A DNA stretch of 64,000 nucleotides, from positions 22,156 through 86,155 of the forward strand of contig QEUQ01000004.1 of the NCBI GenBank assembly GCA_003577105.1, given 5' to 3'. Below, in pieces: positions 21,431 through 44,380 of the stretch. This stretch comes from Acidobacteriota bacterium (GTDB taxonomy: Bacteria; Actinomycetota; Acidimicrobiia; ATN3). The notes under the pieces were generated by a model. It was not told the DNA's origin, made no database searches, and was given only the letters and a program-made list of their open reading frames with translations. Positions within the stretch are counted from its first letter, which is position 1. Each line of letters begins with the position of its first letter. The translations under genes and the position numbers were made by a program.

Positions 21431-21716
21431 CAGCGTCCTCCCTGGGTTTCCGCGGATACGAGCGAACGGGCCAGAGCATTCTGCTTCAGCGGCGTGACAG
21501 CGTGAGGGAATTCGTCGCCGGCGTCGTAGCGACGATCTCCTTGTCGAAGACAGGCCGCGTCAAGTCCACGGCCGATTTCAAGGCGGCGCTCGAGATCCCA
21601 GCCGAACGGCAGGCCCTCGTGGCCGCGACCCGCATACGACCGGCTCAAGATCGTGGCCCGCGCAAGCGAATTCCGCGACTCGTGCCGAGAGCCGGTTTCA
21701 ATGCCATCACCGGTCG

Positions 21717-25558: not shown

Positions 25559-25713
25559 GCGAGGTCTCACTCGGGTCTGGGTTCGACCGGTATTGAGAGA
25601 CAATGCACGTCAACTCCAAATTTGTTCCGGTTCCTGCCCGTGGAGAGATGCAGCACGGGACGGGCCACAGATGGCCATCTCGGGGGCACGAGGCACAACT
25701 GAGAACATCGTTC

Positions 25714-28011
25714 TCAGCCCCACTTGTTCTTCACAAAAGAGACGAGATCCTTTCCCTCAAGAACTCGCGTTGAGTTGTTCACGCGCACGTAGAACACCTG
25801 CTCGCCCTTGGATGTTTTCGCGTATACCGCTTCGGGAGAGGGTGAAACGGTGATGGTGCAAACCTGCTCCTCCTCGATGCCCTCAATGCGGATTCGAGCG
25901 CGAGCCGACGTCGCCGCGCCGAGCGCGGAGGCGAGAACGCTGCTCAGCGCGTTCACATACCGATCCGCGTCGATGCCTTTGTGATCGAGATCTGCTTGAA
26001 TCCCGAGTACCTGATGATCGTCCGAAATCCCTATGGCCAAGGTACCCCCGTCAGCGTTGAAGAACGCCGCTACTGTCTTGATCACGCTCTCTGTCACAAC
26101 CTTTTCGGGCACGTCCGGCTTGTAGCTGAAGAACGCCGACGACTTGAACTCGACAGTCCCATCTTCATCGGCATCGATGAGATCCTTGAGAGTCCACCTT
26201 GGCTCAGTAGGCGGTGACGCAGGAGGTGCGTCTTGCTCGGTCTCATCGCTGGGAAAGTCCCCGTTCCGAAGCTTCTCGAACGCTATCCGCACAACGTTGG
26301 CAATCAGTTGCCGCCGCTCCTTGAGGAACTCGGTGTATTCCATGTTCTCCCACCCTTCAGGCAATGCGTGCCAGAAGCGGGCTTTCTGTTGTTCTTCGCC
26401 GTTGAGTTCACCAAACAGGGCAGGGAAGTACGCGCTAGGGGGCTGGTCACCAATCGAAGCGTTATCGGGCCATTCGACGAAGGCGTAGTTGGCGATCTGA
26501 TTCCGCATACGACTATCGAATCCAAGGGTTCCCAAGTATTTCGCAGGAAAGAGGTGGTGACGTTCGATCGCAGAACGAGGCGCGTGGGTCGATGGGTTCA
26601 GCAGCTCGGCGGTCGTGAGCCGCGAGAACAGAGGAGTAGCACTGAGGAGGACGAGGCTTGCGTGATACGCGAACAGCGTCGGGCTGTAGGCAGCAGAGGT
26701 CTCTAATCCAGACGGCAGCTGGATCTCCCAATAGTCGTTGGTAAGCGCCGTTTCGATGATCTGGTCGAGGGCCAAAACGAAGCCGTCTGAGCCGGTCACG
26801 CCTTCGAGCTGGCGGAGATCTGCCTCCACGCGCGTCTCGAAGCTTCCCGTATACCGTCCGGTTATCGCGGTCATGAAGAACCAGCGAGCGATCACTTCCC
26901 GAAGTAGCCTCCGGTCGACGCCATAGGTCCGCAGGCCTATCAGGTAAAAGAGGTAGCCAAACAACAGGTTGTTCTCCGAGCTGATCATCGAGTGGCTGCA
27001 GTATCCGGCTCGGCGGATCCCCTTCAAGAACTCGTGCCAGTTCGTCAGGTCTAGCACCGCCGATTGTGCGTCGCGCAGTGCGTCAAACTGTCGCTCCCGG
27101 ACCTCAGCAGAGACTTCGCCAGTCGCTAGATCCTTCCCGCGCAAGACCTGATAGACCGACCTGAGTCGGCCACGCCGGAACGCCAGGCCTGCCGCGACTC
27201 GCAGCAGTTGGTCTGGCGAGGGCGCGATAAAAGGGTTCGCGGGAGACGCCACACCCGAAGGCGCGGTCTTCGCGGCACGCGCGAACTCCTCCAGGGCCTT
27301 GCGCCCCTTATCCCACCAAACAGACATCAGGGTAAGAATGAAATCTGCTTGATCAAGTCGGACACCCTCGCTGTTGATACGCACGAAAATCTCGGCGACC
27401 TGCTCTTCGTCGATGTCGCTGCCAAGTTCTACGATCTTGAATGGATAATTCCTCATGTCGAAGAGGCGGTCGATGGCTGTCCAGTGGCGGTCCTCCTCAT
27501 CCTCGTCCAGCTCGCCTTTGGCGGCCTCCAGACGATCGATGAATGACTGCACCTTCTTCTTCATTCCTCCACCGGCCCAAAGGGTGGAGATGTCGGAAAT
27601 GAACTCAGGATCCTTCTCAATTGCGGCGTCAGCCACTTCGAACTGGGCATCGCGGGGCCTAAAAGCGATACGAATTCGGCTCTCGGTAAAGTCATCGCGG
27701 ACAACGGGCTGACCCGTCATGACGGCATAGAGCGAGGTAAGGCGCTGTTGGCCATCTACGATCATGAGGCGTGGCGCGGCCTCCTTCGTGTCGGTACCAA
27801 TACTCCTGGCGCCGGCCTCGGCCCCCGTTGACCAGAGCAACAAGAACCCGACAGGAAATCCCCGATACATCGAGTCGAAAAGGTCCCGGACCTTTGCGGC
27901 CTTCCAGACGAACGGGCGCTGGATGTCTGGCAGCGCGATCTCGCCTCGCCGAATCTCCTCTAATAGAGTCGACAGGTTATATGTCGTGTCTTTGAAGACT
28001 GTTATGGCCAC
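25714..28011 (-). CDS. GmrSD-like type IV restriction enzyme (DUF262 + DUF1524/HNH-like) fused to a C-terminal AlbA_2 / Schlafen-like domain
   Basis: N-terminal DUF262 'DIQRPFVWK...DGQQRLTSL', central DUF1524 'IERHHLFPAKYL', C-terminal 'EFKSS...NADGGTLAIGISDDHQVLGI' (AlbA_2-like). Confidence 0.7.
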   Translation of the reverse strand: MAITVFKDTTYNLSTLLEEIRRGEIALPDIQRPFVWKAAKVRDLFDSMYRGFPVGFLLLWSTGAEAGARSIGTDTKEAAPRLMIVDGQQRLTSLYAVMTGQPVVRDDFTESRIRIAFRPRDAQFEVADAAIEKDPEFISDISTLWAGGGMKKKVQSFIDRLEAAKGELDEDEEDRHWTAIDRLFDMRNYPFKIVELGSDIDEEQVAEIFVRINSEGVRLDQADFILTLMSVWWDKGRKALEEFARAAKTAPSGVASPANPFIAPSPDQLLRVAAGLAFRRGRLRSVYQVLRGKDLATGEVSAEVRERQFDALRDAQSAVLDLTNWHEFLKGIRRAGYCSHSMISSENNLLFGYLFYLIGLRTYGVDRRLLREVIARWFFMTAITGRYTGSFETRVEADLRQLEGVTGSDGFVLALDQIIETALTNDYWEIQLPSGLETSAAYSPTLFAYHASLVLLSATPLFSRLTTAELLNPSTHAPRSAIERHHLFPAKYLGTLGFDSRMRNQIANYAFVEWPDNASIGDQPPSAYFPALFGELNGEEQQKARFWHALPEGWENMEYTEFLKERRQLIANVVRIAFEKLRNGDFPSDETEQDAPPASPPTEPRWTLKDLIDADEDGTVEFKSSAFFSYKPDVPEKVVTESVIKTVAAFFNADGGTLAIGISDDHQVLGIQADLDHKGIDADRYVNALSSVLASALGAATSARARIRIEGIEEEQVCTITVSPSPEAVYAKTSKGEQVFYVRVNNSTRVLEGKDLVSFVKNKWG

Positions 28012-28153: not shown

Positions 28154-31100
28154 TCATTTCATGGATTCCATAAGGGTGAGGATGGTGTCTTTGGTGCGGT
28201 AGGTGCCGTAGGTGGCTTCGTCGTGGCGGCGGACGATGGGGAAGGTGTCGAGGATGTACGCCGCGTCGTCGGCGTTGATGCCGTAGAGGTGGAAGAAGGC
28301 GGCGTCGAGTTCGCAGCGGAGTTGGAAGCGGCGCTCGGGGTCCCACGCGAAAGGCGGGCCGTCGTAGCCGAGGTCGCGAGCGAATGGTTCGAGACCCCAC
28401 GACGTGTAGACGAGTTCTAGGACGCGCGAAGAAATCCAGTCGGCGAGCGTTTCGGCTGGCGCCCATGGCGCAGACGCGTCGTACGTCGAGGGCGAGAAGA
28501 CCGGCAGCTGCTTGAATGTGAAGAACTTCATGTGTGTGCCACCGACCTTCTGGCGGGCCACAAAGTCGTATACGAAAGCGTCAATGTTTCCGAGAAGACT
28601 GGCGTACACAACAGGAAGCTGCCCGCTCGACGGTAATAGCAGGAGGAAATTGTCACCGACGCCAACCAGTGGGATGAGGGCCGATATCGCGGTGCGCTCG
28701 TCGGTGCTGCGGGCAATATCGCGCCAGCCGAGGAGCCAGGGGCGGTCCCATTTGCCGGCAAGGCGGGCCGAGACATCCGCAGCGGGGACCCAGTAGCGGG
28801 GCAGCGGCTGGTAGTTGGGGTCGGCAAGCACGGAATCGGAAATGTCTGGGAGCTGGGTGCTCTTGGAGCCCGCTGGGAGCATCGAGTAGTCGCCGAAGCG
28901 GTGGTTGAACTGGTGGATCATCTTGGCCTCGTACAAGGGCACGTACTGCTCGTCGGCGCGCTGGAAGATGTTGCCTTTCAGTGTCCAGCCGTCGGCTTCG
29001 AGCCCCTCGCGAGTGCGGAAGAGCCCCGAGTCTGAAGTCATGTTGAACAAACCTTGTTTCAGCTGTGCGCCCCAGGGATTGCCTTCTTCCCCCTTGGACT
29101 CATCGATCAGTACGGGCACACGCTCGTAAATTGCCTTGGTGATCTCGGCGTCCCGCCGCGTGCGGAAGATCGGACACGTCTTGGTATTCGGATTGATCAG
29201 TGCGATGTCGGCGGGGCTGAGCGTGATTTGCTTCTCGGGGCGCGCAACATCTTCGGTCGAGTGTGCAAAGAAGACAAAGTCGGCTGCTGCGGCGGGAGAC
29301 TCGGGACCGGTAAGAGCGAGCAAGCAGAACTTGACTCTGCTGTCCACCGCTGGAAACACACGATCGCGGTTCTCGAAGTCCAGGAGCGCGACAAGCGAGC
29401 TCTGCTCGACGAGATCTTGAAAGAAGAACTTGGTCGTGTCATCCGTCGCGATCCCCGACGGCAGCACAGCGCCAACTCGTCCGGCATCCGACGCCAATGT
29501 GCGCATCCCCTCGGCAAAAACCGCGTAGCTGTTGATCTTGCCGGTTCCGCTCAGCGGGTACCTGCCGGACGATCGAACGAAATGGCTTGTCGCATGGCTG
29601 TTGTGAACAGCTCGCTTGAATTCCGCGTGCAGTTCGGGCTGTTCGGATTCGAGCTTCGCAATAAGCTTCTTGCGCTCTGCTCCTGAGGCGGACGCGATTT
29701 CGGGGTCGCGTGAGGCGAAGAACTCCTGTTCAGCAGTAACGAGCTGCTCCCATGGCGGGTTTCCGACGACGACATCAAAGCCGCCGCGCCATCCGGTTAC
29801 CTCGTCTGAGTCGATCGCGAGGTTGTCTTTGGGCGAGAAGACATCGGGGAAAGCCAGATGGAAGTGGAAGAACTGGTTTTCGCGAGCGAGCCGGTCGATC
29901 TCATCCAGAGTCCGGCGGGGCACCGGGGCATCGCCTGTCACGAGGTTGGTCAAGACCTCTTGGGTGACAGGCTCTGGGCCGTCTGTGACCGCGGGCCAGA
30001 AGAAGGCCGCACACCAGGCATCTGCAACCAGCTTTGCCTTCTCGAAGTCATCGGAAGCGACTAGGCTCCGATAACGCTGCTCCTTCTCTCCCACTTGGTA
30101 TATGGAGTCCTGCGGCGCATCCTCTAGTTCGAGGGCGCCGGCGCTGATTGCTGAGTAGCGCGATTCGAGGCCGCGCTGGGGTGCGAGGCTGAGCTGCCCG
30201 CCCTCAGACGCCAACTTGTTCCGCTTCTTATACGACGCCGCGATCTTCTTGTCGTCGCCTTCGATAGGCGCAAAGGCCTCGTTGGGAATCCCGCGCTTGA
30301 TGAGTGCCGGGGTGGCCCCTACGAGCGAATCGCCGACCAAGATCTTGTGGTCGAGGAAGGCCAGGGGCTTGCCGGGCTCCATCGCCTCCATCCATAGCGA
30401 GACTCTGCATAGCTCAGCTGCCATCTCGTTCTTGTCGACGCCATAGATGCAGCGGGCGATGACATCTCTCAGCGCGTGGCGCACCGCTTCGGGGGGCGGC
30501 TCTTCTTCGCCGGTGCGCACTTGAGCTACGCGGCGAGCAATGCGACGAGCGGCGGCAACGAGGAAGTGGCCGCTGCCCGTAGCCGGGTCGAGCACTTTGA
30601 CATCTAGTAGGGCGGCTTCGGGGTCGTCGCTTTGCTGCGCTCGATCCAAGATTGGGTCAAGTGCTCGATCTAGGAGTTCATCGATTAGCGATGACGGCGT
30701 GTAGTAGCTCCCCGTAGTCTTGCGCTCATTGCCACTTGCGACCTTGAGTTCAAAGGTAGCCGCATCGAGACTGAGCACGGGGTGAAGCTCTAGGAGCGAC
30801 TCGTAAACCGAGCCAAGCTCTTCTGCACCTAGGTTCTTGTAGTCGACCCTACGGCGCTTACCCGCTGCATCGACTAGAGAGAGCGACCTGATCGCGTCGA
30901 GAAGGCCGAGTTCGGGGCATCCACGTTCGTCACCAAGCCACCCGGTGACGAGGCGCAGAATCTCGAATAGGTCGGAGTGCGCCGTGCCAACCCTCCGCTC
31001 AGCGAGTTCGCGCAGGCGCGCAGTTGAGTAGTTGTCTATGTAGAGATTGCGGGCTTCGCCGGATGCTTCCGGGCCGAAGAGAAGGTTCCGGTCATCGGCG

Positions 31101-32008
31101 ACGAAGAGGAAGATCAGGCGATAGATCAGGCGCATCAGCTGGCGGTAGTAGGCGAGTGTCGAGAGCTCGCCGCTTCGCAGGCGGTCACGGAGTACGTCGT
31201 TCTTCGGGTGCTCGAGAAAGCCCGAGCCCAGGGCTGCAAGAGCCTCTTCGACCCCGGCGCGCAACTGGTCGAGGGCGCGGGTGCCTTCGCGAATGGCGGT
31301 GTCACGCCAGCGTTCGAGCCAGCAGGTCTCGGGCGGCTCTCCCTCGACCCGGGAGACATGGAAGAGCATGTACGCGAGGACAAAATCGGCGTAGAGATCA
31401 CCGTCGAAGATTGCTTCTAGGTCGAACTCGAGATATGCCTGGCGGGCGAGACTGGCGTTGTCCCGCAGGAGTCTGAGGCGCACGCCATTGGAGACGATGC
31501 CCCAGAGATGATCGTCTGAGCGGTTGAGGAACTCTTGTACCAGCGAGTGCGGGCTCGCCTGCGCGGCGCCGCGGGCGCCGGCCGTTCGCTTGTCTATGTC
31601 TAAGCGGGCGCCGATCAGGTGGATCGGCACATGGCCCCAGAAGTGCGATAGGGGGTATTCCCGCCCATCAAGCTCAGTCGCCTTGCGGGCAGGCTGGAGT
31701 CGGCCAAACCCGAGCTCTTGGAAGAGAATCAGCAACCATCGGTCGCGGGTGAGCCCGGTGGCATGGTCGTCTTCGGGGGTCTTTGCGAGTGCGTCTTTGT
31801 AAGCGGCCCATGCGCCGACGAGGCGAGTCCATGCGCGGTTGGCAGCTTCACCGAGGCGCTCGCCCGAGGCGAGGTGGTAGTCACCGGGGCGGAGGCCCTT
31901 GAGCTCGCTGTCACCCTGAGATATGCGGGCGACTATGTCGGGCGGAATCAGCGACCCCTCGACCGTGAGGGAGATGAACGACGCAGTCTCTTGGCGGCGG
32001 CGGGCCAT
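28154..32008 (-). CDS. N6-adenine DNA methyltransferase, Eco57I/PglX/DrmMI-type (1284 aa)
   Basis: 'TGSYYTPSSLIDELLD', 'VLDPATGSGHFLVAAARRIA' (motif I), 'VVGNPPW' (motif IV). Size and N-terminal region match BREX PglX / DISARM DrmMI-class enzymes. Confidence 0.85.
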   Translation of the reverse strand: MARRRQETASFISLTVEGSLIPPDIVARISQGDSELKGLRPGDYHLASGERLGEAANRAWTRLVGAWAAYKDALAKTPEDDHATGLTRDRWLLILFQELGFGRLQPARKATELDGREYPLSHFWGHVPIHLIGARLDIDKRTAGARGAAQASPHSLVQEFLNRSDDHLWGIVSNGVRLRLLRDNASLARQAYLEFDLEAIFDGDLYADFVLAYMLFHVSRVEGEPPETCWLERWRDTAIREGTRALDQLRAGVEEALAALGSGFLEHPKNDVLRDRLRSGELSTLAYYRQLMRLIYRLIFLFVADDRNLLFGPEASGEARNLYIDNYSTARLRELAERRVGTAHSDLFEILRLVTGWLGDERGCPELGLLDAIRSLSLVDAAGKRRRVDYKNLGAEELGSVYESLLELHPVLSLDAATFELKVASGNERKTTGSYYTPSSLIDELLDRALDPILDRAQQSDDPEAALLDVKVLDPATGSGHFLVAAARRIARRVAQVRTGEEEPPPEAVRHALRDVIARCIYGVDKNEMAAELCRVSLWMEAMEPGKPLAFLDHKILVGDSLVGATPALIKRGIPNEAFAPIEGDDKKIAASYKKRNKLASEGGQLSLAPQRGLESRYSAISAGALELEDAPQDSIYQVGEKEQRYRSLVASDDFEKAKLVADAWCAAFFWPAVTDGPEPVTQEVLTNLVTGDAPVPRRTLDEIDRLARENQFFHFHLAFPDVFSPKDNLAIDSDEVTGWRGGFDVVVGNPPWEQLVTAEQEFFASRDPEIASASGAERKKLIAKLESEQPELHAEFKRAVHNSHATSHFVRSSGRYPLSGTGKINSYAVFAEGMRTLASDAGRVGAVLPSGIATDDTTKFFFQDLVEQSSLVALLDFENRDRVFPAVDSRVKFCLLALTGPESPAAAADFVFFAHSTEDVARPEKQITLSPADIALINPNTKTCPIFRTRRDAEITKAIYERVPVLIDESKGEEGNPWGAQLKQGLFNMTSDSGLFRTREGLEADGWTLKGNIFQRADEQYVPLYEAKMIHQFNHRFGDYSMLPAGSKSTQLPDISDSVLADPNYQPLPRYWVPAADVSARLAGKWDRPWLLGWRDIARSTDERTAISALIPLVGVGDNFLLLLPSSGQLPVVYASLLGNIDAFVYDFVARQKVGGTHMKFFTFKQLPVFSPSTYDASAPWAPAETLADWISSRVLELVYTSWGLEPFARDLGYDGPPFAWDPERRFQLRCELDAAFFHLYGINADDAAYILDTFPIVRRHDEATYGTYRTKDTILTLMESMK

Positions 32009-32010
32009 CG

Positions 32011-34962
32011 CTACGCTCCCCCGCCCTGTGTTGCTTGTGCCTGTGGCTGGGGCACATAGACGTAGATACCGACGATGTCGCGTGGAAGCTCGGCCTCTAC
32101 ATCGACCTTGGCGCCCTTAGCTTTGGCGGCCTCGCGCACTCGCATGTGCTGTTCTGCGACGGCATCGGCACGCCGGAGCGCCTCGGCCTCAAAGACGGGC
32201 GCCAGGCCGGCGGCGGATTCGAGCGCGGCGGCGATGCGTGTTCGCGCATCCTCTGACGCGATGTTGCCGTCGGGGCGGGTATCGAGAAGCGCCTCGATCT
32301 CGTCGGGCTCAAGCCACTCAGCTTTGCCGGTGCTGTTGCGCCATGCGAGCACACCACAGTCTTCGACAAGTGACCGCTTGAGGCCGCTCGGCGTCTTGGC
32401 CGTGAGGTGGAACCTGATGCGAAGCAGCACAAGGGTCGTCGCCGTTGTGACACCCGAGGTGCGAAATGCGCCGCACCGCCTTGCGGGCGAGATCTGGCCG
32501 GCCCCGGGTTCGTCAACGGGGTCAATTGCGAGATCGAGAAGGTAGGTCGCCAATCCGTTGACGAATGGGTGAGTGCGGCTGAAGTACTGCGCTCCCTTGG
32601 GGGCGGGGAAATCAAATGTCGCAGTCAGATCGTTAGAGCCGTTGTGAGTTGGCCCAGGCGCCGTGTTGGTGCTCGCGTAGTCGCGCAATGCCCGAGGTGT
32701 ATGTGCGAGGTTGATTTCAACGGTATCGAGGGGTTTCGCGGTCGCAGTCTTTGCCGTGCCGCCAAGTGCCGGGATCGCGGTCAGTATGAAGTCGCGCACC
32801 GACCCCGGAGAGCCCATCGCCCTGCGCATCTCATCGACGACTTCGCCTACTTCTGCAGCGTCGATGCCGTGCTGGGCAAAGATCGTGCGGGAGCGCTTCT
32901 CGGTGTCGGCGGCTTGTTCCCACTCGCCGAAGAGCTCCTCGCGCTTGGGTTTCAAGAACTCATCGAGAAGGCGGAGCTGTTCGCCCTGTGAGCCCGACTG
33001 CTCTCTTAGTAGGAGCCCCTCGAAGATCGCCTCGACGAGGTTGTTCGAGTCGACCGGTACGGGTACCGAGACACCAGTGGCCTGGCGAATCGCCTTGTGC
33101 TTGCGGATCAAAATGTCGAGAACGATGCCGTCGATCTGGTTGTCGGTGCTGTAGTAGGTGAGGACTCGCACCTTGGGGCTCTTCTGGCCGAAGCGATCGA
33201 CGCGCCCATCGCGCTGCTCGTGCCGGGTTGGGTTCCACGCCAGGTCGTAGTGGACTACTGCGTCAAACCAGTCTTGTAAGTTGATGCCTTCGCTCAGGCA
33301 ATCGGTGGCAACGAGGATCCGCTTCTCTGACTTCGCGAGTTCGCACACCCGGGCCTCGCGCTCATCGTGTGGAAGGCGGCCGGTGACCGCGATGACCTCA
33401 GTGCCCTTCTTGAGCTTCTTTCGCAGCTGCTCGGCGAGATACTCGGCGGTTGGAATGAAGCGGCAGAAGACAATCGGACTGAAGCCGTCTTTGAGAAGTT
33501 CGGCAATGAGCTTTGTTGCCTTCTTCAGCTTGGGGTCGCCATCACCGGCGAGGGCCTCTGCTGCCTTGGCCATCTCTCGCAGACGACGTTGCTCGCTCTC
33601 GGCCACAGCCGGGCTTGTTTCGGATTCGATCTCGTCAGAGATTGAACCGGGGATTACGTCGCTTGGGTCACCTGCATCGTCATCGGCGAGGTCGAGAACA
33701 GTCCGGCGCCCGACCTCGTCGGCCTCTTCCGGTGTCTCGGTATTGATTGCCGCCGCCCGGGTTCTCAGCGTCTCGGCAGCAGCCATTGGCGATGACCCGA
33801 GAGACCTCAGCAGTGCAAGGGCCGACCACCACTGGACCCGGTTGCGATACGTGCCGGTCTCGGTGTCGCGGATCTTCTCTCTCGCGTAGTCGACGGCGCG
33901 GTTGAAGAGCTTCTGATACTCGGGTGTCAGCTCATAAGCGGCTTCGGAGTCTTCACGATCAGGGAACGATGTATCGGTCTCGAGGTAATGGCGGATGTCG
34001 CCCCTGCGGCGCTGGACCATGTGGCGCGCAAGAGCTCTCCGGTGCTTTTCATTTTGCGGGCCGTTCAGATCGTCGGGCATTTCGCGGAGCTTGCTGTTGA
34101 GTAATGCCACGAGCGACTTGAACGATTCGGGCTTGCCGCTATGAGGCGTCGCAGTAACAAGGACAATGTGGCGATCGTCGTCTTCGGCGAGCTTGGTCAC
34201 GAGCTGGTTGCGCAGATGGCGATTGTGGGTCTCGGCTCCAACCGAACAAGTGTGAGCCTCGTCGACAATCACCAGGTTAGGACATGCCCTGACGAAGTCA
34301 TCGCGGCGACGATCCGACTTGATGAAGTCGATCGAGACGATTGTCACGGGATGCGCTTCAAAGAGCGACTGGCCGAAACTGGTCTGGCGCTCTAGGCGTG
34401 AGACAGTCGACGGCAGTACGACTTCGGCTTCGATGTGGAACTTTTCTGACAGCTCGCCACGCCACTGCTCGGCAAGATGAGGCGGGCAGAGCACGCAGAG
34501 CCCGGTTGCGTCACCTTGTTCGAGAAGTTCCTTGGCAATGAGCGCGGCCTCGATGGTCTTGCCGACGCCGACATCATCTGCAATGAGAAGGCGCACCGGG
34601 TCGAGACGGAGCGCCATGAGCAAGGGCACCAGTTGGTAGGGGCGGGGTTCGACGGCGACCTTGGCGACTGATCTGAAGGGGCCGGCTGATGATCTGAAGC
34701 CGATACGCAGTGAGTCTCTCAGTAGGCGGCACGAGAGGTAGTCGCCGAGCTGAGAGGGGTCGGGCGGGTCGAATTGCGCTGACTCGACCTTCTCGAGCGT
34801 CGCGAGCACACCGGCTGCCTCGATGGCAGAGCCGCCGAGAGGGTGGAGCACCAACAAATCGCCTGCTGATTCGGGCTGGACGATCCACTCACGTCCGCGG
34901 GCACGCACGATCGACCCTGGCGAGAAGCGCTCGGCTGCGGGGGCCTGCTCGCTCACACTCAT
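32011..34962 (-). CDS. SNF2-family helicase (DrmD-like)
   Basis: 'LLIADDVGVGKTIEA', 'DEAHTCS', helicase-C 'TDCLSEGINLQ...RDGRVDRFGQ'; start overlaps the stop of the upstream gene (ATGA). Confidence 0.85.
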   Translation of the reverse strand: MSVSEQAPAAERFSPGSIVRARGREWIVQPESAGDLLVLHPLGGSAIEAAGVLATLEKVESAQFDPPDPSQLGDYLSCRLLRDSLRIGFRSSAGPFRSVAKVAVEPRPYQLVPLLMALRLDPVRLLIADDVGVGKTIEAALIAKELLEQGDATGLCVLCPPHLAEQWRGELSEKFHIEAEVVLPSTVSRLERQTSFGQSLFEAHPVTIVSIDFIKSDRRRDDFVRACPNLVIVDEAHTCSVGAETHNRHLRNQLVTKLAEDDDRHIVLVTATPHSGKPESFKSLVALLNSKLREMPDDLNGPQNEKHRRALARHMVQRRRGDIRHYLETDTSFPDREDSEAAYELTPEYQKLFNRAVDYAREKIRDTETGTYRNRVQWWSALALLRSLGSSPMAAAETLRTRAAAINTETPEEADEVGRRTVLDLADDDAGDPSDVIPGSISDEIESETSPAVAESEQRRLREMAKAAEALAGDGDPKLKKATKLIAELLKDGFSPIVFCRFIPTAEYLAEQLRKKLKKGTEVIAVTGRLPHDEREARVCELAKSEKRILVATDCLSEGINLQDWFDAVVHYDLAWNPTRHEQRDGRVDRFGQKSPKVRVLTYYSTDNQIDGIVLDILIRKHKAIRQATGVSVPVPVDSNNLVEAIFEGLLLREQSGSQGEQLRLLDEFLKPKREELFGEWEQAADTEKRSRTIFAQHGIDAAEVGEVVDEMRRAMGSPGSVRDFILTAIPALGGTAKTATAKPLDTVEINLAHTPRALRDYASTNTAPGPTHNGSNDLTATFDFPAPKGAQYFSRTHPFVNGLATYLLDLAIDPVDEPGAGQISPARRCGAFRTSGVTTATTLVLLRIRFHLTAKTPSGLKRSLVEDCGVLAWRNSTGKAEWLEPDEIEALLDTRPDGNIASEDARTRIAAALESAAGLAPVFEAEALRRADAVAEQHMRVREAAKAKGAKVDVEAELPRDIVGIYVYVPQPQAQATQGGGA

Positions 34963-37900
34963 GGCGTACCGAAGATCTCGGGGTAGCCGGCTGCAATCTC
35001 AGGCCAAGCCGACTTGTCGTATCCGAAAACAATGATGGTGTAGCCGGCATCGGTGAGGGCGTCGCGCTTCTCGGCGTCGCCCTTTGCCACATCAGCGTTG
35101 TCGTGAATAGGGCCGTCTATGAATACAGCAGCTGAGTACGACTTATAGAAAAAGTCGGGTTGTACGTAGTGGCCATCGATCTTCACCTGTGCTGCATCAG
35201 GCATGTCGAGATTGGCTTCGTCAACGAACTTCAACCACTCGCGCTCGAGGTCTGAATCGCATAGCTTCTCGAGTCTTGCCCGGTGCTCGGCACGTGTCAG
35301 CGGCCCCGGGGATGCAGCAACCTTTGCGTTGGTGAGATCCATCAGGAGCTGGCGAATCGCCTTGCGGTCGAGTGCCTTGTGGTCTCGCTGATTGCGATAG
35401 GTCATGAGGCAGTTGTAGCAAGCTTTCTCGCAGTCTTCTTCGGCGTTGTCGGCGCGGCGCAGGTCGTCGCCGGTCTCGGGATCAAAATGACAAATCTCAA
35501 GTGCCTTACCTGCGATGCCCGCTAGAGCATTGGGGTCATCGACTAGCTGACGAAGTACTCCGGCGCCGCCTTCGGCTGCTTCATAGAAGAGGAGCCTCCT
35601 CGGGTCGCCCCCGGTCGGAAGGGCTTCGGAGGCAATCTCGTTCTCTTCAAGTTCGTAGACGATGCCAATTGCCGCGGCGAGTGCTGCTTGGAGGGACTTG
35701 ATCTCTGCGGTGCCGAGGTCATCGCCGGGCTCGATCAGAAGGCAGTTCTTCTTGTCATCCACATAGGGAACAACCATGCGCTTGCTTGCGCTCATCGGGT
35801 CGCCGGGGTCTTCGTCTTCGGACAGCTCGTCGTTCCGGCCCCAATAGCCATTTTGGGTGTCGAGCTGGAAGCCCCAGGCATCTTGCTTCTTACGCCTGCG
35901 CCACCCGGCATTGACACGCCAAATGGTTGCCGAGCTTCCGTAGCTGAGCCGACCCCACTCGTCGCCATTGATCTCGACCTGGCCAATGCGCCTGTGAGTG
36001 CTGTTGCCTGAGCCGCCGAATCTGAAGAAGGCATGGATCTCGTAGCCGATGCGGAGGCGGTCCTCTTCATCGGAGGTAATGCGCTGGCGCCGCCTCGTGT
36101 TTGCGTTGCGCATCCGAAAGAGATCGGAGCGGGCAAAGCCGAGAGCCCCACCACAGAGGTGGCACTCGTCGGGCCCCGGAGGTTGAGGTATCTCGTGAAT
36201 GTATCCACATGATTCGCAGAGCTTGGCCGTACTCGTCAGGGCGTTCATCTCGTCGGTGTCTTTGCTGCCGGCGAAGATCACACCGTTGATCTGATACTTC
36301 GCCCCTTCGTGGTAGACGATCGCCCGGGGACCGAACTCGGAGATCGCTAGGAAGCGAGGCCGGCTCAGGTATTCGTCGAAGCCCTTGTTCCGCCTGCGGG
36401 CCGGAATGTATGCCGATATCGGCAGGCGAGGGAAGCTGTAGCCGGGGAGGAACCCTTGGCTCGCAAAGTAGCGGTACGAGTAGAAGTCAGACTGGCTGAC
36501 TTTTCCCTCTGAGCTGAGCAAGATCTTGATCTGTTGCTCGGCCTCATTGCGCAGACGCGTGGCGGTCTTTCGTGCCTCGGCTGCCGTGGCGGCGTTCTGA
36601 ATCACCGCGTTCTGGTTCCGGTGCTGGGATTGGGCGGCAAAGTAGAGCTCACGCCAGCGGTCACATGCCCGGTCAAGCTGGCTGGGGCACTGACTGATTA
36701 CCTCGTCGAGCCAATAATCTGAGTACCAGTCGGGGTCTCCCGGTCGCAGATCGATTTCGTCGAGCATTGATGCGGCCCTAGTCCGCGCCGTAGATGCAGC
36801 GGTCTTGCTTCTCAGCGCCTCGGCGACGTGGTCTTTGAGGGGGTAGTGGCCGGTCTCATTTTCGAGATCGAGGATGTCACGCAGCGACTTGTGGAGATCC
36901 ACGCCGGTGGCGCGGAGCCAGATCGCTTGAACGTGTGAGCGAATCAGATCTTCGTTGTGTAAGTCGATGCGGGGCAGGGAGACTTCGCCCGAGACCATCG
37001 CATCTTGGCGGCGGAAGAAGTACTGGTCGTGCGGGCTGCCGGCGGTGCAGTAGGTGATGACAATCGCGGGCTGGCCCTGACGCCCTGCTCGCCCTGAGCG
37101 CTGCGCGTAGTTGGCGGGCGAAGGTGGAACGTTTCGCATGTGGACCGCGTTGAGATCGGCGATATCTACGCCGAGCTCCATGGTCGGCGAACAGTAGAGG
37201 ATCGGCAGCTGCGCGGATCTGAAGTTCTCTTCGCGTCGTTCGCGCACCTCGTAAGGGACCTGCGCGGTGTGCTCGTGGGCTTCTAGACCCTTTGTTGAGA
37301 GCGCGGCTAAGCGGTAGAAGTCGGTGAAGAACTCGTTGGCGGCATCTGGGATTGCGGTGGCCGTCTCGTTGTCTTGGCCAGTGCCCTCTGCGTCGCCAGT
37401 GCCCTCTGCGTCGCCTCCGCTCGTGCGGAGTTCGTCTCTGACGGGGGTGCCGTCGCCCGGAACCCATTTCATGCCCGCTGCGACTAGTTGATAACCACCT
37501 GCTTGGTCACCTTTGGCTTCGTCAATGCACTCGACCAACCCGGCTTTGCGGAGATTCTCGAGCAGATCGAGAAGTACCATCGGCACTTCATCGGATCCGA
37601 TCGGCGACTCTAAGTTGGGGAAAGTACTTTTCTTTCGTAGGAACTGGCCGATGAGGCTCCGTGCCGAGCCATAGCGGTTGAGGCTGGACTCACCCCGCTT
37701 ACTGACCCTGGGATACAACAAGCCCGACTTCTCGAGGTTCTCACCTTCATCAATTGCCCACGGCTCGCGAAGACGCTGTTCGGAAACGCTGCGAATTCGC
37801 TCTTGTTCCACCGGGTCGAGATACGAGACCTTGATCAGCAGTTCAGTCCGCATGAACTGGAGGAGTGTTGTAGCGACTTTGGCGCGCACCTCGGGTGTGG

Positions 37901-40304
37901 CCGTTGTGAGGGCGAGGTGGAGGCCGGTCCAGTCATCGTCGTTGGCACAGAGCTCATCGAGTGACCGGTACTCGATCTTGAGTAGTCCACACTGCTCAAG
38001 GTTGGGCGAGGTGATGCGCCAGCCGCGCTTGAGGTCTTGGTAGAGGCGATAGCCGAGGACTTCGCGCATGGCACGGTAGGTGTCGTCTTTGGCCGCGTAC
38101 TTGACCTCTCGATCTGCCGCGAAGTCCTCCAAGCCAAGGTTGAGCGAATCAAGTACGCGATGAGGAAGTTCCTCATGGGTGAGCCCCTCGGGATCTGCCT
38201 CCTCGGCTGCGTTGAGGAGAGCCGCTCGGATCATCCCCGTCTGGATGAAGTCGTTGAAGTGACCGGCCTGAAGTGATGCATCTTGCCGGTCGTCGGTGAA
38301 GCTGAGGAGCTTGCGGGCTTGAGCCGCCAGATCTTGGTCGGCTTTGAGGCGGCGAACAAGCGACAGCGAGAGGATCGTCGTTGCGGTGGATCGCCCTTCG
38401 CTAGATAGCGTGCCGAGCTTGGCGAAGTCCGAGCGCTGCTTCGACGAGTAGGTGACCCCACACTTGATACAGAACTGGAATGGCGCATAGATCAGCGCGC
38501 AGTCGACACCGCTGCCGGTTGCGTCTGCTCCGTTCTGTGCGCCATCGGTGCCAACTCGAATCGCTCTGGGTATGTGCTTCTTGCTGTTGCGCTTGACCCG
38601 AGCGTCAGAACCGCTCCCTTCGATCCAGTCTTCTGGAATCAGCGAGATCTGTTCTGAAGGGCCGACCGGCCAAGGCTTGGTCTCACTCATATATAGGAAT
38701 GCAGGTTTCTTGCCAGAATCCTCGAAGCGATCGGTCAGCTCTCTGGGCGAGAAGGTGAGGTCGCTTTCGTCTTCGTCGTCGGAGGCATATACGACGTAGT
38801 ACTCCTGCCCGCATCCCGGATTTCGACAGAAGGCGATGGGCAGGAGAATCTTGTCGCGATCGCCGGGAACGAATTGCTGTGCTTCGGTTGTAATGTGGCG
38901 TTGATCGGCCGGTTCAAGCGATGCATAGGCGCTCGTTCCGCGGCCGATGAACTGGTGAAGTCTGAATGCGAAGACCGGGAAACCCGTTGCGGGGTTGGTG
39001 ATCGCGTTGCCGTCGAGGAGGGCTTGGCGGATGGCCGATGTGGCGGCATCGGGGTCTGTCGACGTGAGCTGCGCGAGTACTTCGGCCGCACCTCCGTGGC
39101 CGTCAATAGGCCGTGGCTTCTGGCGAATGTAAGTGCCGGTTTCGTCTTCACGTATCAGGCCGAAGGTGGACTCGATCCATTGCGCTAGCGGGTCTCCTTG
39201 GAGGTCAGCGAAATTCTCCGGCCGGTTGTAGTTGTTGATGCGCTTGCCCAGCGCATCCCGAAAAATCTCGCTGTTGAGATCGGGTTCGTGCGTCGCGCGG
39301 CGAAGTGTTTCGCCGATGACGTTCTTAGCATCGACCGTTGTGCCAAAGATCTGCGTGGCAACCTCAGCGACACGAGTCCGTTGCTCTTCTATGGAGCTGC
39401 CACCGGCGAGCGTTGCCGACGTGCCAACGCATTGAAGACTCGGTGAGTTGCAGGTTTCCCGCACCCGCCTGGCGAGCATCGCAACATCTGCGCCTTGGCG
39501 CCCCCGGTAGGTGTGGAGCTCGTCGAAGACCAAGAACTGAAGGCCCTCGGCTCCGGCAATCAGCTTGGCTTCTTGGGGGCGAGTCAAGATGAGCTCGAGC
39601 ATGACGTAGTTGGTGAGCAAGATGTCGGGAGGGTCAGTGATGATCGCCTGCTTGGCCTCCTCGTTTTCCTGTCCGGTGTAGCGGCGGAAGGTGACGGGCG
39701 GTTTGTTCTGCGGGTAGCCGTTGCAGAGGAACTTGGCGAGCTCGCCCTCTTGGGAGTTGGCGAGCGCATTCATCGGGTAGACGACAATCGCCTTGATCGA
39801 GCCTCCCGAGCCTTGACGCAGCACCCTGTCGACGATGGGAACGATGTAAGCAAGGCTCTTGCCCGACCCCGTGCCGGTGGTTAGCACGTAGTTCGCCTGG
39901 GTTGCTGCGGCTCTGATGGCCTCTTCCTGGTGCTTGTGGAGCTGGATCAGCTCGCCCTCGCGAGAGGTGCCGTCATCATTCTTGGCCTTGTCACGCCGAA
40001 AAATGCGTTCACACTCCGGGTGGAGCAGGCCTTCGGCGATTAGGTCTGGGATCGGAGCGCCACGCTCGAACGAAGGATTTAACTGGATGCGCGGCTCGGG
40101 CCAGAGGAGGCCACGGTCGAAATAGTCGCTGACTTTCGCCTCGATGCGCGCGTCAGCAATGTTGATGAAACTCCTCACGTATGAGGAGAAGTCATCGATC
40201 AGTCCTTCGCGGAGATCGAATATGTCCACTTGGTTCCGCCCCAGTCGGCCGCCCCGAATTGCAGCTTGTGACCGACCAATTGGGCTTCGCGACAGCGCTT
40301 GCAC
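34959..40304 (-). CDS. Giant (1781 aa) DEAH-box helicase fused to a DUF1998-like domain (as in DrmA+DrmB; DruE-like) with C-terminal DUF559/Vsr-like nuclease-fold domain
   Basis: Helicase motifs '[15 protein letters not shown]', 'FDELHTY', '[13 protein letters not shown]'. DUF1998-like Cys cluster '[33 protein letters not shown]'. C-terminal '[21 protein letters not shown]...[18 protein letters not shown]' resembles DUF559. Confidence 0.7.
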
Positions 40305-40340
40305 GGCCAGCTCGATGCTGCGTCGAGAAGACTAACGCGC

Positions 40341-40351
40341 GGGTGTGACAC
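40341..40351 (-). promoter_or_regulatory. Recurrent motif (GTGTCACACCC) 37 bp upstream of the DISARM-like operon start
   Basis: Same core as the motifs upstream of TA toxin genes. Confidence 0.3.
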
Positions 40352-40777
40352 TCTGCCGTGAGTCTTCCGGCGGGACTCGTTGTGCTCACACGGATTTGTC
40401 GCACCTGGTGGCTAGTGTGCGACTTGCCGGGGCTGACCGTCAGCCGCTTCCTCTTGGTGCTATCTCGCTCAAGGGGAGCCATGCGTTTCATCCGCAACGT
40501 CGAGGACGACAACGGTGATTTGGTCGAACTCATCTACTACTGCAGCTGGCTCTGCTTTTCGACTGAGTCTGACGCGGCGGTCGCGTCGCTGACCGGCGGT
40601 GCCTGGCCGTGCTTAGACTCGGAGCTGACTCTTCCGGCGGTTTGCCGAGGGTGTGGCCGACCCGTCGGTGCAAGCGACTCGATTGAAGTCGAACTGGAAC
40701 TGCATTCGTCGGCCCATGGCGCCTCGACGGATCTCGCTGAGCGATACTTTGGGTCTGGTTTTCGAGAAAGGGGGCGC

Positions 40778-42472: not shown

Positions 42473-44380
42473 TCACAGGCAGCCGTCGTAGAGTTCGGCG
42501 TTGACCTTGAATCCGCTGTCAATGAAACGGACGACGTCATTTTCCGTGTGGAAGACCAGCGAGGTGCCGACGTTTGTCGGAAGGACTGGATCGACCTGGA
42601 CGATTGACCACGGCGGGTACTCTCCCTTGATGTTGAGATGGGTTCGGCCGGAGTAGGTACCGATGACCTGTGTTCCCGTATTGCCGATTCCGAGACCTTC
42701 TGCAGTGAGACTTGTCGAAGTTCCGTAGACGCGAGTGCTCACGATCACGCCGTAGTTGAGCATGAACCGGATGTCCCAGCCTGTCGGAGCCGCGTAGCGG
42801 CAAGAGCCATCGCCATAGAAATCCATACCAAGCGTGTATGTGAATCCCCCGATCTGGGCAGCCTCTGTAATCGACATCCCCGCGCGAATCGGGCCAATAC
42901 CTCTATGGTGGATGCGCGATGCCGCCGACAGGTAGGGCTCAGGCGCAGCCGGCGGACCGGGCTGGGCAGCGCCAACATGGCCGCCGTCTGCGAATCCTTT
43001 ATAGGTGAAATACATCGGGCGCTCGGTGACGATTGGCTGGTCTGACGCGACGCGCGCCGAGTCATCGACCCCGACGCCAAGATCGTTGCCGACCGCGAGC
43101 GTTCGGCGAGAGTTGGCCGGAACCATCAGTGATGTCGACGCCGTGGCCCCACCGGGGAACTGGTATGCGACGGTCACCCGTGCGTCGATGCCACCGGGAT
43201 TCTGAAACGTCAGGTACTCGTCGAATCCGGGGCCTGTGTAGCCCTCGGCGAAGTAGCCGGTTGTAAGCGGCGCGCTCTGCCCGACGACGACGCTGCCGCC
43301 ATCGACCGAACCCTTGTAGTTGAAGTACATCGGGCGCTCGGCCAGCACAGGCTGGTCTGAGGTGACTTTGGCCGAGACCTCTTGGTTGGCACCGACAACG
43401 TTGTTGACCCGCACGGTCGAGCGGGCGTGTGGCGGCACCACAAGCGCATTGCCAAAGGGCGTGCCCGAAGACGACTGATATGCGATCGAGACGTTGGCCG
43501 CGACCGATCCGGGGTTCTGCAGCGTGATGTACTCGTCGAATCCGGCGCCGGTATAGCCCTCGGCGAAGTAAAGGGTGGTGGCGGCTGCACTTTGCGCGGG
43601 CGAGACGTGTCCGTCGGTGATCGACCCGTGATAGGTGAAGTACATCGGACGCTCGGCCAGTATCGGCGCATCCGAGGTGAGCTTGGCACTCACCTCTTGG
43701 CCGGGGCCGACCTCGGCGTTGACGTTGACGGTCTGGCGCGAGGTCGGAGCGACTACATGTTGGGTGTTGATCACCGGTCCGGTGCCGAGCTGGTACTCGA
43801 TGTCGACGGTGGCCGGTGCGCCACCCGGGTTCTGCAACGTGATGTACTCGTCAAAGCCCAGGCCGGTGTACCCCTCTGCAAAGTACATCGTCTGGGCGAG
43901 CTGGCTCTGGCCGGATGCGACGTGCCCGCCCGTGACCGACCCCTTGTAGGTGAAATACATCGGGCGCTCGGCGAAGATCACCTGATCTGACTCGATCTTG
44001 GCGCTCACCTCTTGGCCGGGGCCGACCTCTGAGTTGACGTTGACAGTGGCGCGTGAGTTGGGCGCGACCTGGCGGCTGGTGTTGATCGTCGCCCCGGTGC
44101 CGGTCTGGTAAGTGATGTCGACGTTGGCCGTGGCCGTTGTCGGGTTCTGAATGGTGAGGTACTCCTCGAAGCCCGGCCCCGTATAGCCCTCGGCGAAGTA
44201 GAGGGTTGTTACCGGGGATGGGATGCGGGCCGTGTCGTGGGCCCTGGCCGTTGCGGTTGCCGGTGTCGCGGGCGTCGCGGCGATCACGAGCGCGGCGATT
44301 GCGGCGAGAGCTGCCGCCCTTCGGCGTTCTTGCGGCCGCCGCCGCCTCTGCCTCTGGTTCGTCCGACCCGTCTGCGCCAT
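42473..44380 (-). CDS. Tat-signal secreted protein with four tandem ~100-aa repeat domains
   Basis: 'RRRRPQERRRAAALAAIAAL' Tat-like N-terminus. Repeats of 'YFAEGYTG.GF.EY.T.QNP....V...YQ...G......VAP.SR.TV.VN..VG..QEVSAK..SD.P...ERPMYF.Y.G'. Confidence 0.55.
   Translation of the reverse strand: MAQTGRTNQRQRRRRPQERRRAAALAAIAALVIAATPATPATATARAHDTARIPSPVTTLYFAEGYTGPGFEEYLTIQNPTTATANVDITYQTGTGATINTSRQVAPNSRATVNVNSEVGPGQEVSAKIESDQVIFAERPMYFTYKGSVTGGHVASGQSQLAQTMYFAEGYTGLGFDEYITLQNPGGAPATVDIEYQLGTGPVINTQHVVAPTSRQTVNVNAEVGPGQEVSAKLTSDAPILAERPMYFTYHGSITDGHVSPAQSAAATTLYFAEGYTGAGFDEYITLQNPGSVAANVSIAYQSSSGTPFGNALVVPPHARSTVRVNNVVGANQEVSAKVTSDQPVLAERPMYFNYKGSVDGGSVVVGQSAPLTTGYFAEGYTGPGFDEYLTFQNPGGIDARVTVAYQFPGGATASTSLMVPANSRRTLAVGNDLGVGVDDSARVASDQPIVTERPMYFTYKGFADGGHVGAAQPGPPAAPEPYLSAASRIHHRGIGPIRAGMSITEAAQIGGFTYTLGMDFYGDGSCRYAAPTGWDIRFMLNYGVIVSTRVYGTSTSLTAEGLGIGNTGTQVIGTYSGRTHLNIKGEYPPWSIVQVDPVLPTNVGTSLVFHTENDVVRFIDSGFKVNAELYDGCL
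43015..44209 (-). repeat. Four tandem ~300-bp coding repeats inside 42473-44380
   Basis: Seen as four near-identical peptide repeats in the ORF. Confidence 0.6.

Follow-up and report, generated by a model that had tools for sequence, protein, structure and literature searches.

A probable ARMADA Type I defence operon, armC-armA-armB, in a metagenome-assembled genome

Three consecutive minus-strand genes in the 64-kb stretch of DNA analysed here (the window) very probably constitute an ARMADA Type I defence operon, armC-armA-armB, within a defence island; the source is a metagenome-assembled genome (MAG). As defined by Bell et al. (2025, bioRxiv 10.1101/2025.09.15.676423, PMC12458937), ARMADA Type I consists of the YprA-like helicase ArmC with a C-terminal Vsr-type nuclease, followed by the BrxHII/RapA-like SNF2 protein ArmA and then by the PglX-like protein ArmB; the representative Type I ArmC is WP_108720193.1, and the accessible portion of Table S1 of that preprint holds at least about 2000 helicases of this type. 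ArmC has also been described as resembling a DrmAB fusion with Vsr-type domains (EHEC mBio 2026). The architecture is real and already known, and because it was named and catalogued in the 2025 preprint the locus is not new. An earlier note on this DNA had taken the fused variant to be undescribed; that claim has to be given up, the same composition, order and nuclease having been defined as ARMADA Type I (Bell et al. 2025). The features of the locus are as follows, with ArmC residues numbered throughout by the 1781-aa reading of its open frame:

40230..40480, no strand: intergenic region between armC and the divergent HTH-M78 gene (sequence, L085 gene calls)
34959..40229, minus strand: armC, 1756 aa from the GTG at 40229; YprA-family DExH helicase with OB-CON-DUF1998 (MZB) module and C-terminal Vsr-like nuclease
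39405..39935, minus strand: ArmC RecA1 lobe, residues 124-300 (Pfam DEAD, 1.8e-24; Walker A GTGSGKS, Walker B DELH)
37305..39404, minus strand: ~700-aa ArmC insertion that separates RecA1 from the conserved C-terminal portion of RecA2
37074..37301, minus strand: ArmC Helicase_C (RecA2) core, residues 1002-1077 (Pfam Helicase_C, 1.5e-12; motif [10 protein letters not shown])
36153..36218, minus strand: zinc-binding insert of the ArmC OB region, with four Cys in two CxxC motifs (1363-1366, 1381-1384)
35406..35693, minus strand: ArmC MZB/DUF1998 zinc-binding domain, residues 1538-1633
34962..35282, minus strand: ArmC Vsr/DUF559-like PD-(D/E)xK nuclease domain, ~residues 1675-1781 (invariant D1717, D1730, H1734, D1743)
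32011..34962, minus strand: armA, 983 aa; BrxHII/RapA-like SNF2 helicase (Pfam, solved-structure match, blastp, junction sequence)
28154..32008, minus strand: armB, 1284 aa; PglX/DrmMI-like N6-adenine DNA methyltransferase (Pfam, PADLOC, motifs, blastp, junction sequence)

In the window ArmC, a YprA-family helicase is fused to an OB-CON-DUF1998 module and carries a C-terminal Vsr-type PD-(D/E)xK nuclease that is predicted to be active. Its ArmA and ArmB partners are encoded in the same operon, and the gene order on the minus strand, armC, armA, armB, matches the Type I order of YprA homologue, BrxHII-like and PglX-like genes. Among related loci on genome contigs with at least 8 kb downstream of armC, 52 of 53, from many phyla, carry armC, armA and armB in this order on one strand, with median gaps of ~50 nt; loci L001-L004, L087 and L092 have the same trio in the same order. 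Two contigs, BAABHJ010000041.1 (L050) and BOOU01000055.1 (L056), each encode one full-length ArmC homologue together with the trio, and the window ArmC shows 42-44% full-length identity to these homologues. Both contigs are labelled 'ARMADA Type I helicase' in the accessible part of Table S1 of Bell et al. (2025); the accessions of the source MAG were not found among the Table S1 rows available.

The three minus-strand genes, with the motifs and domains first ascribed to them, proved to be real by their open reading frames, motif positions and Pfam matches. The proposal that they are joined by ATGA overlaps holds at the first junction, where the armA start overlaps the armC stop in an ATGA at 34962-34959; at the second, a TAG at 32013-32011 is followed by 'cg' and the ATG at 32008, giving a 2-nt spacer instead. 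The longest reading of the armC frame runs over 34959-40304 on the minus strand, from a GTG at 40304, and yields the 1781 aa previously assigned to the large protein; the open frame stands, its start most likely does not. Since ArmC homologues begin with 'MDVFxLR', aligned with V26 of the 1781-aa ORF, and the gene call for armC on the Logan contig L085, identical to the window, is 1756 aa long, the GTG at 40229 is the most likely start. Upstream lies the intergenic region, presumably the site of the operon promoter, with an inverted repeat (20 nt, imperfect) at 40327-40367; a consensus scan for sigma-70 promoters and terminators gave results at or below shuffle expectation and was uninformative.

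That the long ORF is genuine, as opposed to an artefact joining drmA and drmB, was borne out. It is a single ORF without stops; more than 8000 ArmC homologues were scored, and among the matches listed 120 of 120 have the helicase and DUF1998 regions fused and cover 96-99% of the query at 1695-1836 aa. A second, separate assembly is a 100% match to the window over 12,174 nt, including the whole armC gene. These full-length homologues and the identical second assembly rule out a fusion created by assembly or frameshift. An exact look-up of the flanking DUF5719 protein, aimed at strains lacking the island, returned only two contigs, both identical to the window. In a disordered linker of the ArmC copy here, 6 aa are duplicated in tandem and in frame.

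ArmC belongs to the YprA-family DExH helicases and has a large zinc-rich insertion, an OB-CON-DUF1998 module and a C-terminal Vsr-like nuclease domain. Pfam recognizes DEAD, Helicase_C and MZB/DUF1998 in it, the last, a signal anticipated for the large ORF, at 37.3 bits against a cut-off of 24.2. The motifs are GTGSGKS (144-150), DELH (261-264), QRSGRAGR (1068-1075) and [19 protein letters not shown] (1624-1642). The ~700-aa insertion contains winged-helix as well as helical domains, plus a beta-rich module in which C493, C498, C612 and C615 are invariant, and Pfam found no matches in this 701-aa segment; what is expected of a Type I ArmC between RecA1 and RecA2 is a BrxA-like helical insert, a Zn-binding beta-barrel and a MarR-like domain. 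The Cys residues of the OB-region insert are invariant among 12 diverse homologues. The closest relatives of ArmC among solved structures are two helicase chains of 2.0-2.1 kb (the best being 9tu7, 2108 aa), which we take to be DruE, followed by MrfA.

The best PADLOC matches of ArmC are likewise DruE models (DruE3, 317 bits; DruE1, 302 bits), as might be expected of a Druantia system centred on DruE, for instance a Type III-B-like form with an SNF2 helicase and a methyltransferase replacing DruH; a Vsr nuclease is also present on some Type III-like DruE proteins (Bell et al. 2025). In Druantia Type III (DruH-DruE), DruE is the nearest characterised helicase to ArmC, a 3'-to-5' ssDNA helicase-nuclease effector that has the fused helicase-insert-DUF1998 arrangement in common with it and likewise a nuclease at the C-terminus, but its partner is DruH, not an SNF2 helicase and a methyltransferase, and the nuclease domains of III-A are PLD-type, not Vsr-type. 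We consider a Druantia identity most unlikely: the conserved partner genes are the ARMADA pair, PADLOC scans of the neighbouring genes recovered no homologues of DruH, DruA-D or DruF/G/M, and tblastn with E. coli DruH found nothing in 85 related loci. The hhalign comparisons also favour ARMADA, the ArmC family profile aligning to the validated ArmC of E. coli ATCC 8739 with a score of 502 over 1468 columns (75-1702), nuclease covered, and to DruE with 416 over columns 93-1603, nuclease not covered. The earlier suggestion that the giant protein might alternatively be of the DruE type is disfavoured by the lack of Druantia partners in the neighbouring genes scanned, partly DruE-like though the protein is at 317 bits.

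Concerning the C-terminus of ArmC, the terminal ~70 aa had been likened to DUF559 nucleases. The fold was correctly recognized: ArmC homologues carry PF04480, a family profile matches PDB 3hrl_A, and a structure model with fold comparison places the C-terminus in a Vsr-like fold. The size was underestimated, the domain spanning ~105 aa, and in the window ArmC itself DUF559 scores below the Pfam threshold (E=0.0014, 18.9 bits vs 20.6). The four putative catalytic residues (D/D/H/D) are invariant, which lends weight to the 'active?' label that Bell et al. (2025, PMC12458937) attach to this domain of Type I. It is the only recognisable nuclease among the three proteins; none was detected in the N- or C-terminal parts of ArmB.

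ArmA is a RapA/BrxHII-like SNF2 ATPase, with Pfam SNF2-rel_dom and Helicase_C, the motifs GVGKT (132-136) and DEAH (234-237), and RapA as the closest solved structure; blastp aligns it with E. coli ArmA at 27% identity over 542 aa (160 bits). The PglX-like ArmB is an N6-adenine methyltransferase whose SAM-binding and NPPW motifs are intact: it matches Pfam Eco57I and N6_Mtase, carries GSYYTP (433-438), DPATGSG (474-480) and NPPW (750-753), with motifs I and IV intact, scores 211 bits with the PADLOC DrmMI model, and aligns with E. coli ArmB at 21% identity over 1037 aa (121 bits, blastp). Pfam gave no matches on the termini of ArmA and ArmB, and ArmB matched no PDB sequence.

ArmA also matches PADLOC PDLC02853, named 'DpdE', end to end (838 bits), and ArmC has partial PADLOC matches to DpdJ and DpdF, which could point to part of a Dpd or BRIGADE-type 7-deazaguanine DNA-modification/restriction system. 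We give this reading virtually no credence. The NCBIfam DpdE and DpdJ models score 177 and 75 bits against cut-offs of 500 and 800, and the window genes scanned include no TGT-like DpdA, ParB-like DpdB, DpdC or queuosine-precursor genes. Moreover, canonical Dpd helicases are without the DUF1998 Cys cluster that is present in ArmC, and BRIGADE is reported only in halophilic archaea (Bell et al. 2025).

Like the window locus, DISARM class 1 (DrmD, DrmMI, DrmA, DrmB, DrmC) combines a YprA-type helicase and a DUF1998 module with an SNF2 helicase and an N6-adenine methyltransferase, and the earlier note had filed the locus there, as a variant with DrmA and DrmB fused and a Vsr-like nuclease in place of the PLD nuclease DrmC. 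The anatomy it described (a fused helicase-DUF1998-Vsr/DUF559 protein, an SNF2 helicase and an N6-adenine methyltransferase) stands, as does the kinship it saw with both DISARM class 1 and Druantia; the class 1 filing is disfavoured (DruE 317 vs DrmA 51 bits), and we regard it as quite improbable. PADLOC scores of 215-317 bits with DruE models contrast with 51 and 43 bits for DrmA, whose models cover only ~75-95 residues of RecA2. NCBIfam DISARM_DrmD scores ArmA at 332 bits, far below its equivalog cut-off of 610, and none of the NCBIfam DrmMI models reaches its cut-off, so that the proteins are homologous to the DISARM partners but fall outside the equivalogs. DISARM has its helicase and DUF1998 on two proteins, a split that distinguishes it from every other YprA clade, and the main defence branch of the YprA tree to which it belongs is not that of ARMADA and Druantia (Bell et al. 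2025). Separate DrmA and DrmB genes and the PLD-family nuclease DrmC are absent at the window locus; as had been noticed, no PLD-family protein is encoded by the operon or by the neighbouring genes scanned. With only ~100 residues ahead of RecA1, ArmC cannot accommodate the EVE-like, trigger-loop and jelly-roll N-terminus that Bell et al. (2025) describe for class 1 DrmA. Older annotations will mislabel the locus, because a 2023 PADLOC database breaks it up into DruE-like, 'DpdE' and DrmMI matches.

Set beside ARMADA Type I, the window shows nothing of substance that differs: the three proteins, their order, the single OB-region zinc-binding insert, the lack of ArmD, the wide phyletic spread and the Vsr-type nuclease at the ArmC C-terminus, including its PDB neighbour 3hrl, are shared. 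The source is labelled an Acidobacteria MAG, outside the two phyla reported as richest in Type I. ARMADA Type II of E. coli (armABCD; NCTC 12900, ATCC 8739, EDL933 OI-172), which is experimentally validated, shares homologues of ArmA, ArmB and ArmC, the ArmC alignment extending over ~1470 columns including the first Vsr domain. It differs in its strict order, armA-armB-armC-armD as against armC-armA-armB in the window, in its longer ArmC (2113 aa), to which EEP-like and second Vsr domains are added, and in its need for ArmD, a GajB-like protein (UvrD helicase) that bears a RelE-like domain at its N-terminus. No ArmD or UvrD-like gene was found among the neighbouring genes scanned, but four related ArmC-first loci do have ArmD homologues.

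Type II defence needs every gene of the set, as well as the Walker motifs and NPPW; it proceeds without abortive infection, and hypermodified T-even phages evade it (Bell et al. 2025, PMC12458937; EHEC mBio 2026). A mechanism may be proposed from this validated E. coli system and from the biochemistry of DruE, a 3'-to-5' ssDNA helicase, MrfA and DrmAB. ArmB would mark host DNA at a short motif and would itself be needed for defence; ArmC would load on single-stranded or forked phage DNA and translocate 3'-to-5', and its Vsr-like domain would cut the phage DNA; ArmA might remodel or translocate on duplex DNA, aiding loading or self/non-self discrimination. The outcome would be direct phage clearance, not abortive infection. 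For Type I we infer this mechanism, as the literature yielded no experimental test of that type and phage assays only for Type II, which needs ArmD; function is likewise transferred from E. coli by inference, because the identity of the window proteins to their Type II counterparts is low (21-37% over blastp segments). A more far-reaching proposal, which we hold to be rather unlikely, is that the three-gene Type I is a self-sufficient minimal ARMADA, in which the Vsr-like domain of ArmC would be the sole effector nuclease, ArmB methylation would both mark self and license defence, and expression would here also be gated upon DNA damage by the divergent HTH-ImmA/IrrE (CapH/CapP-like) protein. 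As a discovery the locus carries little weight, its architecture having been named, catalogued and partly validated in 2025-2026; as a compact three-gene operon, it is a convenient candidate for a first test of Type I and for the question of whether ArmD is dispensable.

The window contains no tRNA that might serve as an integration site, and the search for direct repeats bounding the island gave only short matches, probably due to chance. The HTH-M78, DUF4411 and SbcD-like genes recur in none of the related loci, the SMC-like gene has one weak partial match among them (L022), orf309/orf369 recur only in the closest relative, and the GmrSD-like downstream gene recurs in 1 of 84. The downstream genes are treated as neighbours, not as parts of ARMADA, because their recurrence in related loci is near nil. 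The divergent gene upstream of armC encodes a fused HTH-ImmA/IrrE (HTH-M78; CapH/CapP-like) protein.

The three large minus-strand genes claimed in an earlier note on this DNA were located as open reading frames, and each motif quoted there was found at a definite position in its protein. We name them after the ARMADA Type I set, in which armC, armA and armB respectively encode a YprA-like helicase-nuclease, a SNF2 helicase and an N6-adenine methyltransferase:

34959-40304, minus strand: armC, 1781 aa, longest open frame
32011-34962, minus strand: armA, 983 aa (GenBank RIK10759.1)
28154-32008, minus strand: armB, 1284 aa (GenBank RIK10758.1)

ATGA overlaps had been described at both junctions; one is present between armC and armA (34962-34959), whereas armA and armB are separated by a 2-nt spacer (TAG-cg-ATG). 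Likewise, 1781 aa is the longest possible product of armC, but the likely start is the GTG at 40229, which would yield 1756 aa, because the homologues begin with 'MDVFxLR', aligning with V26 of the longer frame, and because gene prediction on a Logan contig of identical sequence gives 1756 aa. In the 1781-aa numbering, the Pfam domains of ArmC are:

residues 124-300: DEAD
residues 1002-1077: Helicase_C
residues 1538-1633: MrfA zinc-binding domain, PF09369/DUF1998 (37.3 bits against a cut-off of 24.2), as the earlier note had proposed

ArmC additionally contains an insert with four invariant cysteines in a beta-rich module. A further four-Cys insert, in its OB region, is as described for ARMADA Type I. 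ArmA matches SNF2-rel_dom and Helicase_C, and ArmB matches Eco57I and N6_Mtase. A perfect 18-nt tandem duplication in armC (37377-37412) encodes DAEGTG twice, in a low-confidence, poorly conserved linker right before the RecA2 core.

The union of helicase and DUF1998 module in a single polypeptide is genuine. A search of a 5.8-billion-protein collection scored at least 8000 candidate homologues, all with E <= 1e-10, and the 120 listed are of 1695-1836 aa, with 51-73% identity and query coverage of 96-99%. Furthermore, run SRR7051044 was also assembled separately, and that assembly agrees with the window at 100% identity across 12,174 nt, a stretch that takes in the whole of armC and the armC/armA junction. 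These full-length homologues and the identical assembly rule out a fusion created by misassembly or frameshift.

The DUF559-like nuclease proposed for the ArmC C-terminus was recovered less directly. The last 146 residues match DUF559 below the Pfam cut-off (E=0.0014; 18.9 bits against 20.6), but several of the listed homologues have a DUF559 match, and several carry the JGI label 'YprA (DUF1998 family)/very-short-patch-repair endonuclease'. A profile built from 24 homologous C-termini matched a single PDB sequence, 3hrl_A, which is described as a DUF559 'endonuclease-like protein', and the D, D, H and D positions are identical in the alignment. The corresponding ArmC residues, D1717, D1730, H1734 and D1743, are invariant in 28/28 sequences from many phyla, and we take them to be equivalent to Vsr D51, the H64 position, H69 and D97. 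Residues 1500-1781 were modelled with AlphaFold2 at a mean pLDDT of 83.8, the final 110 residues being mostly above 90.

On sequence grounds, the operon is very probably a standard member of ARMADA Type I. The earlier note knew of no description of such a fused variant, but this architecture has already been defined as ARMADA by Bell et al. (bioRxiv 10.1101/2025.09.15.676423), whose Type I ArmC has a C-terminal Vsr-type nuclease, and who found the ARMADA helicases to be nearest to that of Druantia and the other two genes to be common to DISARM class 1. The position between DISARM and Druantia perceived in the earlier note holds. The 'ARMADA Type I helicase' entries in their Table S1 include BAABHJ010000041.1 (Actinoallomurus liliacearum) and BOOU01000055.1 (Sphaerisporangium rufum); each contig has one locus in our scan, with a full-length ArmC homologue (44% and 42% identity, respectively) and the trio of genes. 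The accession of the window's genome was not found in the portion of Table S1 that was covered. Our scan, with one genome per species, recovered at least 540 armC loci, of which 80 were kept, from phyla including Actinomycetota, Chloroflexota, Acidobacteriota, Planctomycetota, Spirochaetota, Myxococcota, Deinococcota and Pseudomonadota. When the three window proteins were compared by tblastn with those loci having at least 8 kb downstream (n=53), the order armC-armA-armB on one strand was seen in 52, with median gaps of about 50 nt. In four loci retrieved by exact protein look-up, the SNF2 and methyltransferase genes likewise lie downstream of the helicase gene, some of these loci having one or two additional genes interposed.

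Assignment to DISARM class 1, favored by the earlier note, fails despite the shared partner genes. PADLOC (2023 database) splits the operon among DruE-, 'DpdE'- and DrmMI-type models: ArmB matches DrmMI at 211 bits and ArmA reaches 297 bits with DrmD, but ArmC scores far higher with DruE models (317 bits, partial) than with DrmA (51 bits). None of the three proteins reaches an NCBIfam equivalog cut-off, DrmD being well under its own. The defining split DrmA/DrmB pair is absent, as is the PLD nuclease from the operon and the neighboring genes scanned, so that the reported lack of DrmC stands. The affinity of ArmC to DruE would suit Druantia, the alternative raised previously; this too fails, since no Druantia partner proteins were found among the neighboring genes scanned, and the ArmC family profile prefers ArmC. 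With comparison proteins from the E. coli ATCC 8739 island bearing ARMADA II, Druantia III and Zorya II, hhalign matched that profile to E. coli ArmC with a score of 502 over 1468 columns (75-1702), nuclease included, and to DruE with 416 over 1333 columns, stopping at 1603 before the nuclease. A Dpd system is suggested by the best match of ArmA, the 'DpdE' model PDLC02853 (PADLOC-DB 2.0.0; 838 bits, end to end), but dpdA-C and the precursor genes are absent from the window genes scanned and ArmC has the DUF1998 Cys cluster. Older PADLOC runs probably give ARMADA SNF2 helicases the name DpdE.

Within ARMADA, the window's ArmA and ArmB are 27% and 21% identical to their E. coli namesakes. The armC-first order distinguishes Type I from Type II, and the UvrD/GajB-like ArmD, the fourth Type II protein, was not detected among the neighboring genes scanned. 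Near-full-length homologues of E. coli ArmD, at 31-36% identity, do occur in four other armC-first, Type-I-like loci, either following armB or in the interval that separates armC from armA, so ArmD is not confined to the strict Type II gene order:

L008, 12310-13971: ArmD homologue
L017, 6919-8955: ArmD homologue
L027, 15535-17553: ArmD homologue
L083, 22131-24212: ArmD homologue

The three genes retain their domains with intact motifs and are inherited together. Among the papers found, none put a Type I ARMADA to experimental test. In published work on E. coli ARMADA II, every gene is essential, defence depends on the ArmA and ArmC Walker motifs and on NPPW in ArmB, and protection is direct and non-abortive but escaped by hypermodified T-even phages. 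Of the characterised helicases, the nearest is DruE, which binds ssDNA and has 3'-to-5' unwinding activity. By analogy with these systems, ArmB would methylate a host motif and also act in defence, ArmA might serve as a remodeller or duplex translocase, and ArmC would contact forked or single-stranded phage DNA and cleave it via its Vsr-like domain, the operon's only recognisable nuclease, as none was recognised in ArmB.

The operon lies on a 145,950-bp contig of an NCBI metagenome-assembled genome labelled 'Acidobacteria bacterium', amidst other defence-type and mobile genes; there is no tRNA gene in the window. An exact-sequence look-up for relatives returned only contigs identical to the window. 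The neighbors are:

13094-14419 and 17955-19253, left side of the defence gene cluster: IS256/Mutator-family element and ISL3-family transposase gene
19395-25603, minus strand: tightly packed genes for a SbcD-like phosphoesterase, a Rad50/SMC-like ATPase, orf133, orf309 and orf369
25714-28011, minus strand: GmrSD_N/DUF262 and Schlafen AlbA_2 protein, 765 aa, 143 nt downstream of armB
40358(40481)-42400, plus strand, divergent from armC: fused HTH_3 and ImmA/IrrE M78 peptidase gene, then DUF4411 gene
42473-44380, minus strand: DUF5719 gene

Except for one pair in the closest relative, L087, the defence-type and mobile neighbors are not conserved with ARMADA elsewhere, which fits an island-borne, horizontally moving system. 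That pair, orf309 and orf369, has homologues of 58% and 68% identity in L087 (12553-14604), directly after armB, and therefore co-travels with the window's ARMADA lineage; the genes separating it from armB differ between the two. The SbcD-like to orf369 genes are apparently co-transcribed; as a set they matched no defence system, the ATPase giving a weak LmuB match. The 765-aa protein combines an N-terminal GmrSD_N/DUF262 with a C-terminal AlbA_2 domain, two domains not usually paired in a Type IV-restriction-like protein; it matches HEC-05 and PDC-M55C in PADLOC, and a homologue follows armB in 1/84 related loci (L083). The IS256/Mutator-family element has 19-nt terminal inverted repeats.

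The HTH_3-M78 protein matches RmrA of Rosmer in PADLOC, and CapP weakly; with DUF4411 it could form a Rosmer-like or toxin-antitoxin pair, or be a damage-responsive regulator of the neighboring operon. No sequence homologue was detected in 85 other ARMADA loci, although upstream in both L003 and L004 there is a separate pair of HTH and M78. Between the HTH_3-M78 gene and armC lies an inverted repeat of 20 nt, imperfect (40327-40367; 75% complementary, 1-nt spacer), which may be an operator, though it is weak and could be due to chance. Within the DUF5719 gene there are four 315-nt repeats that have diverged to 62-77% identity, so its product is built from copies of a domain of about 105 aa.
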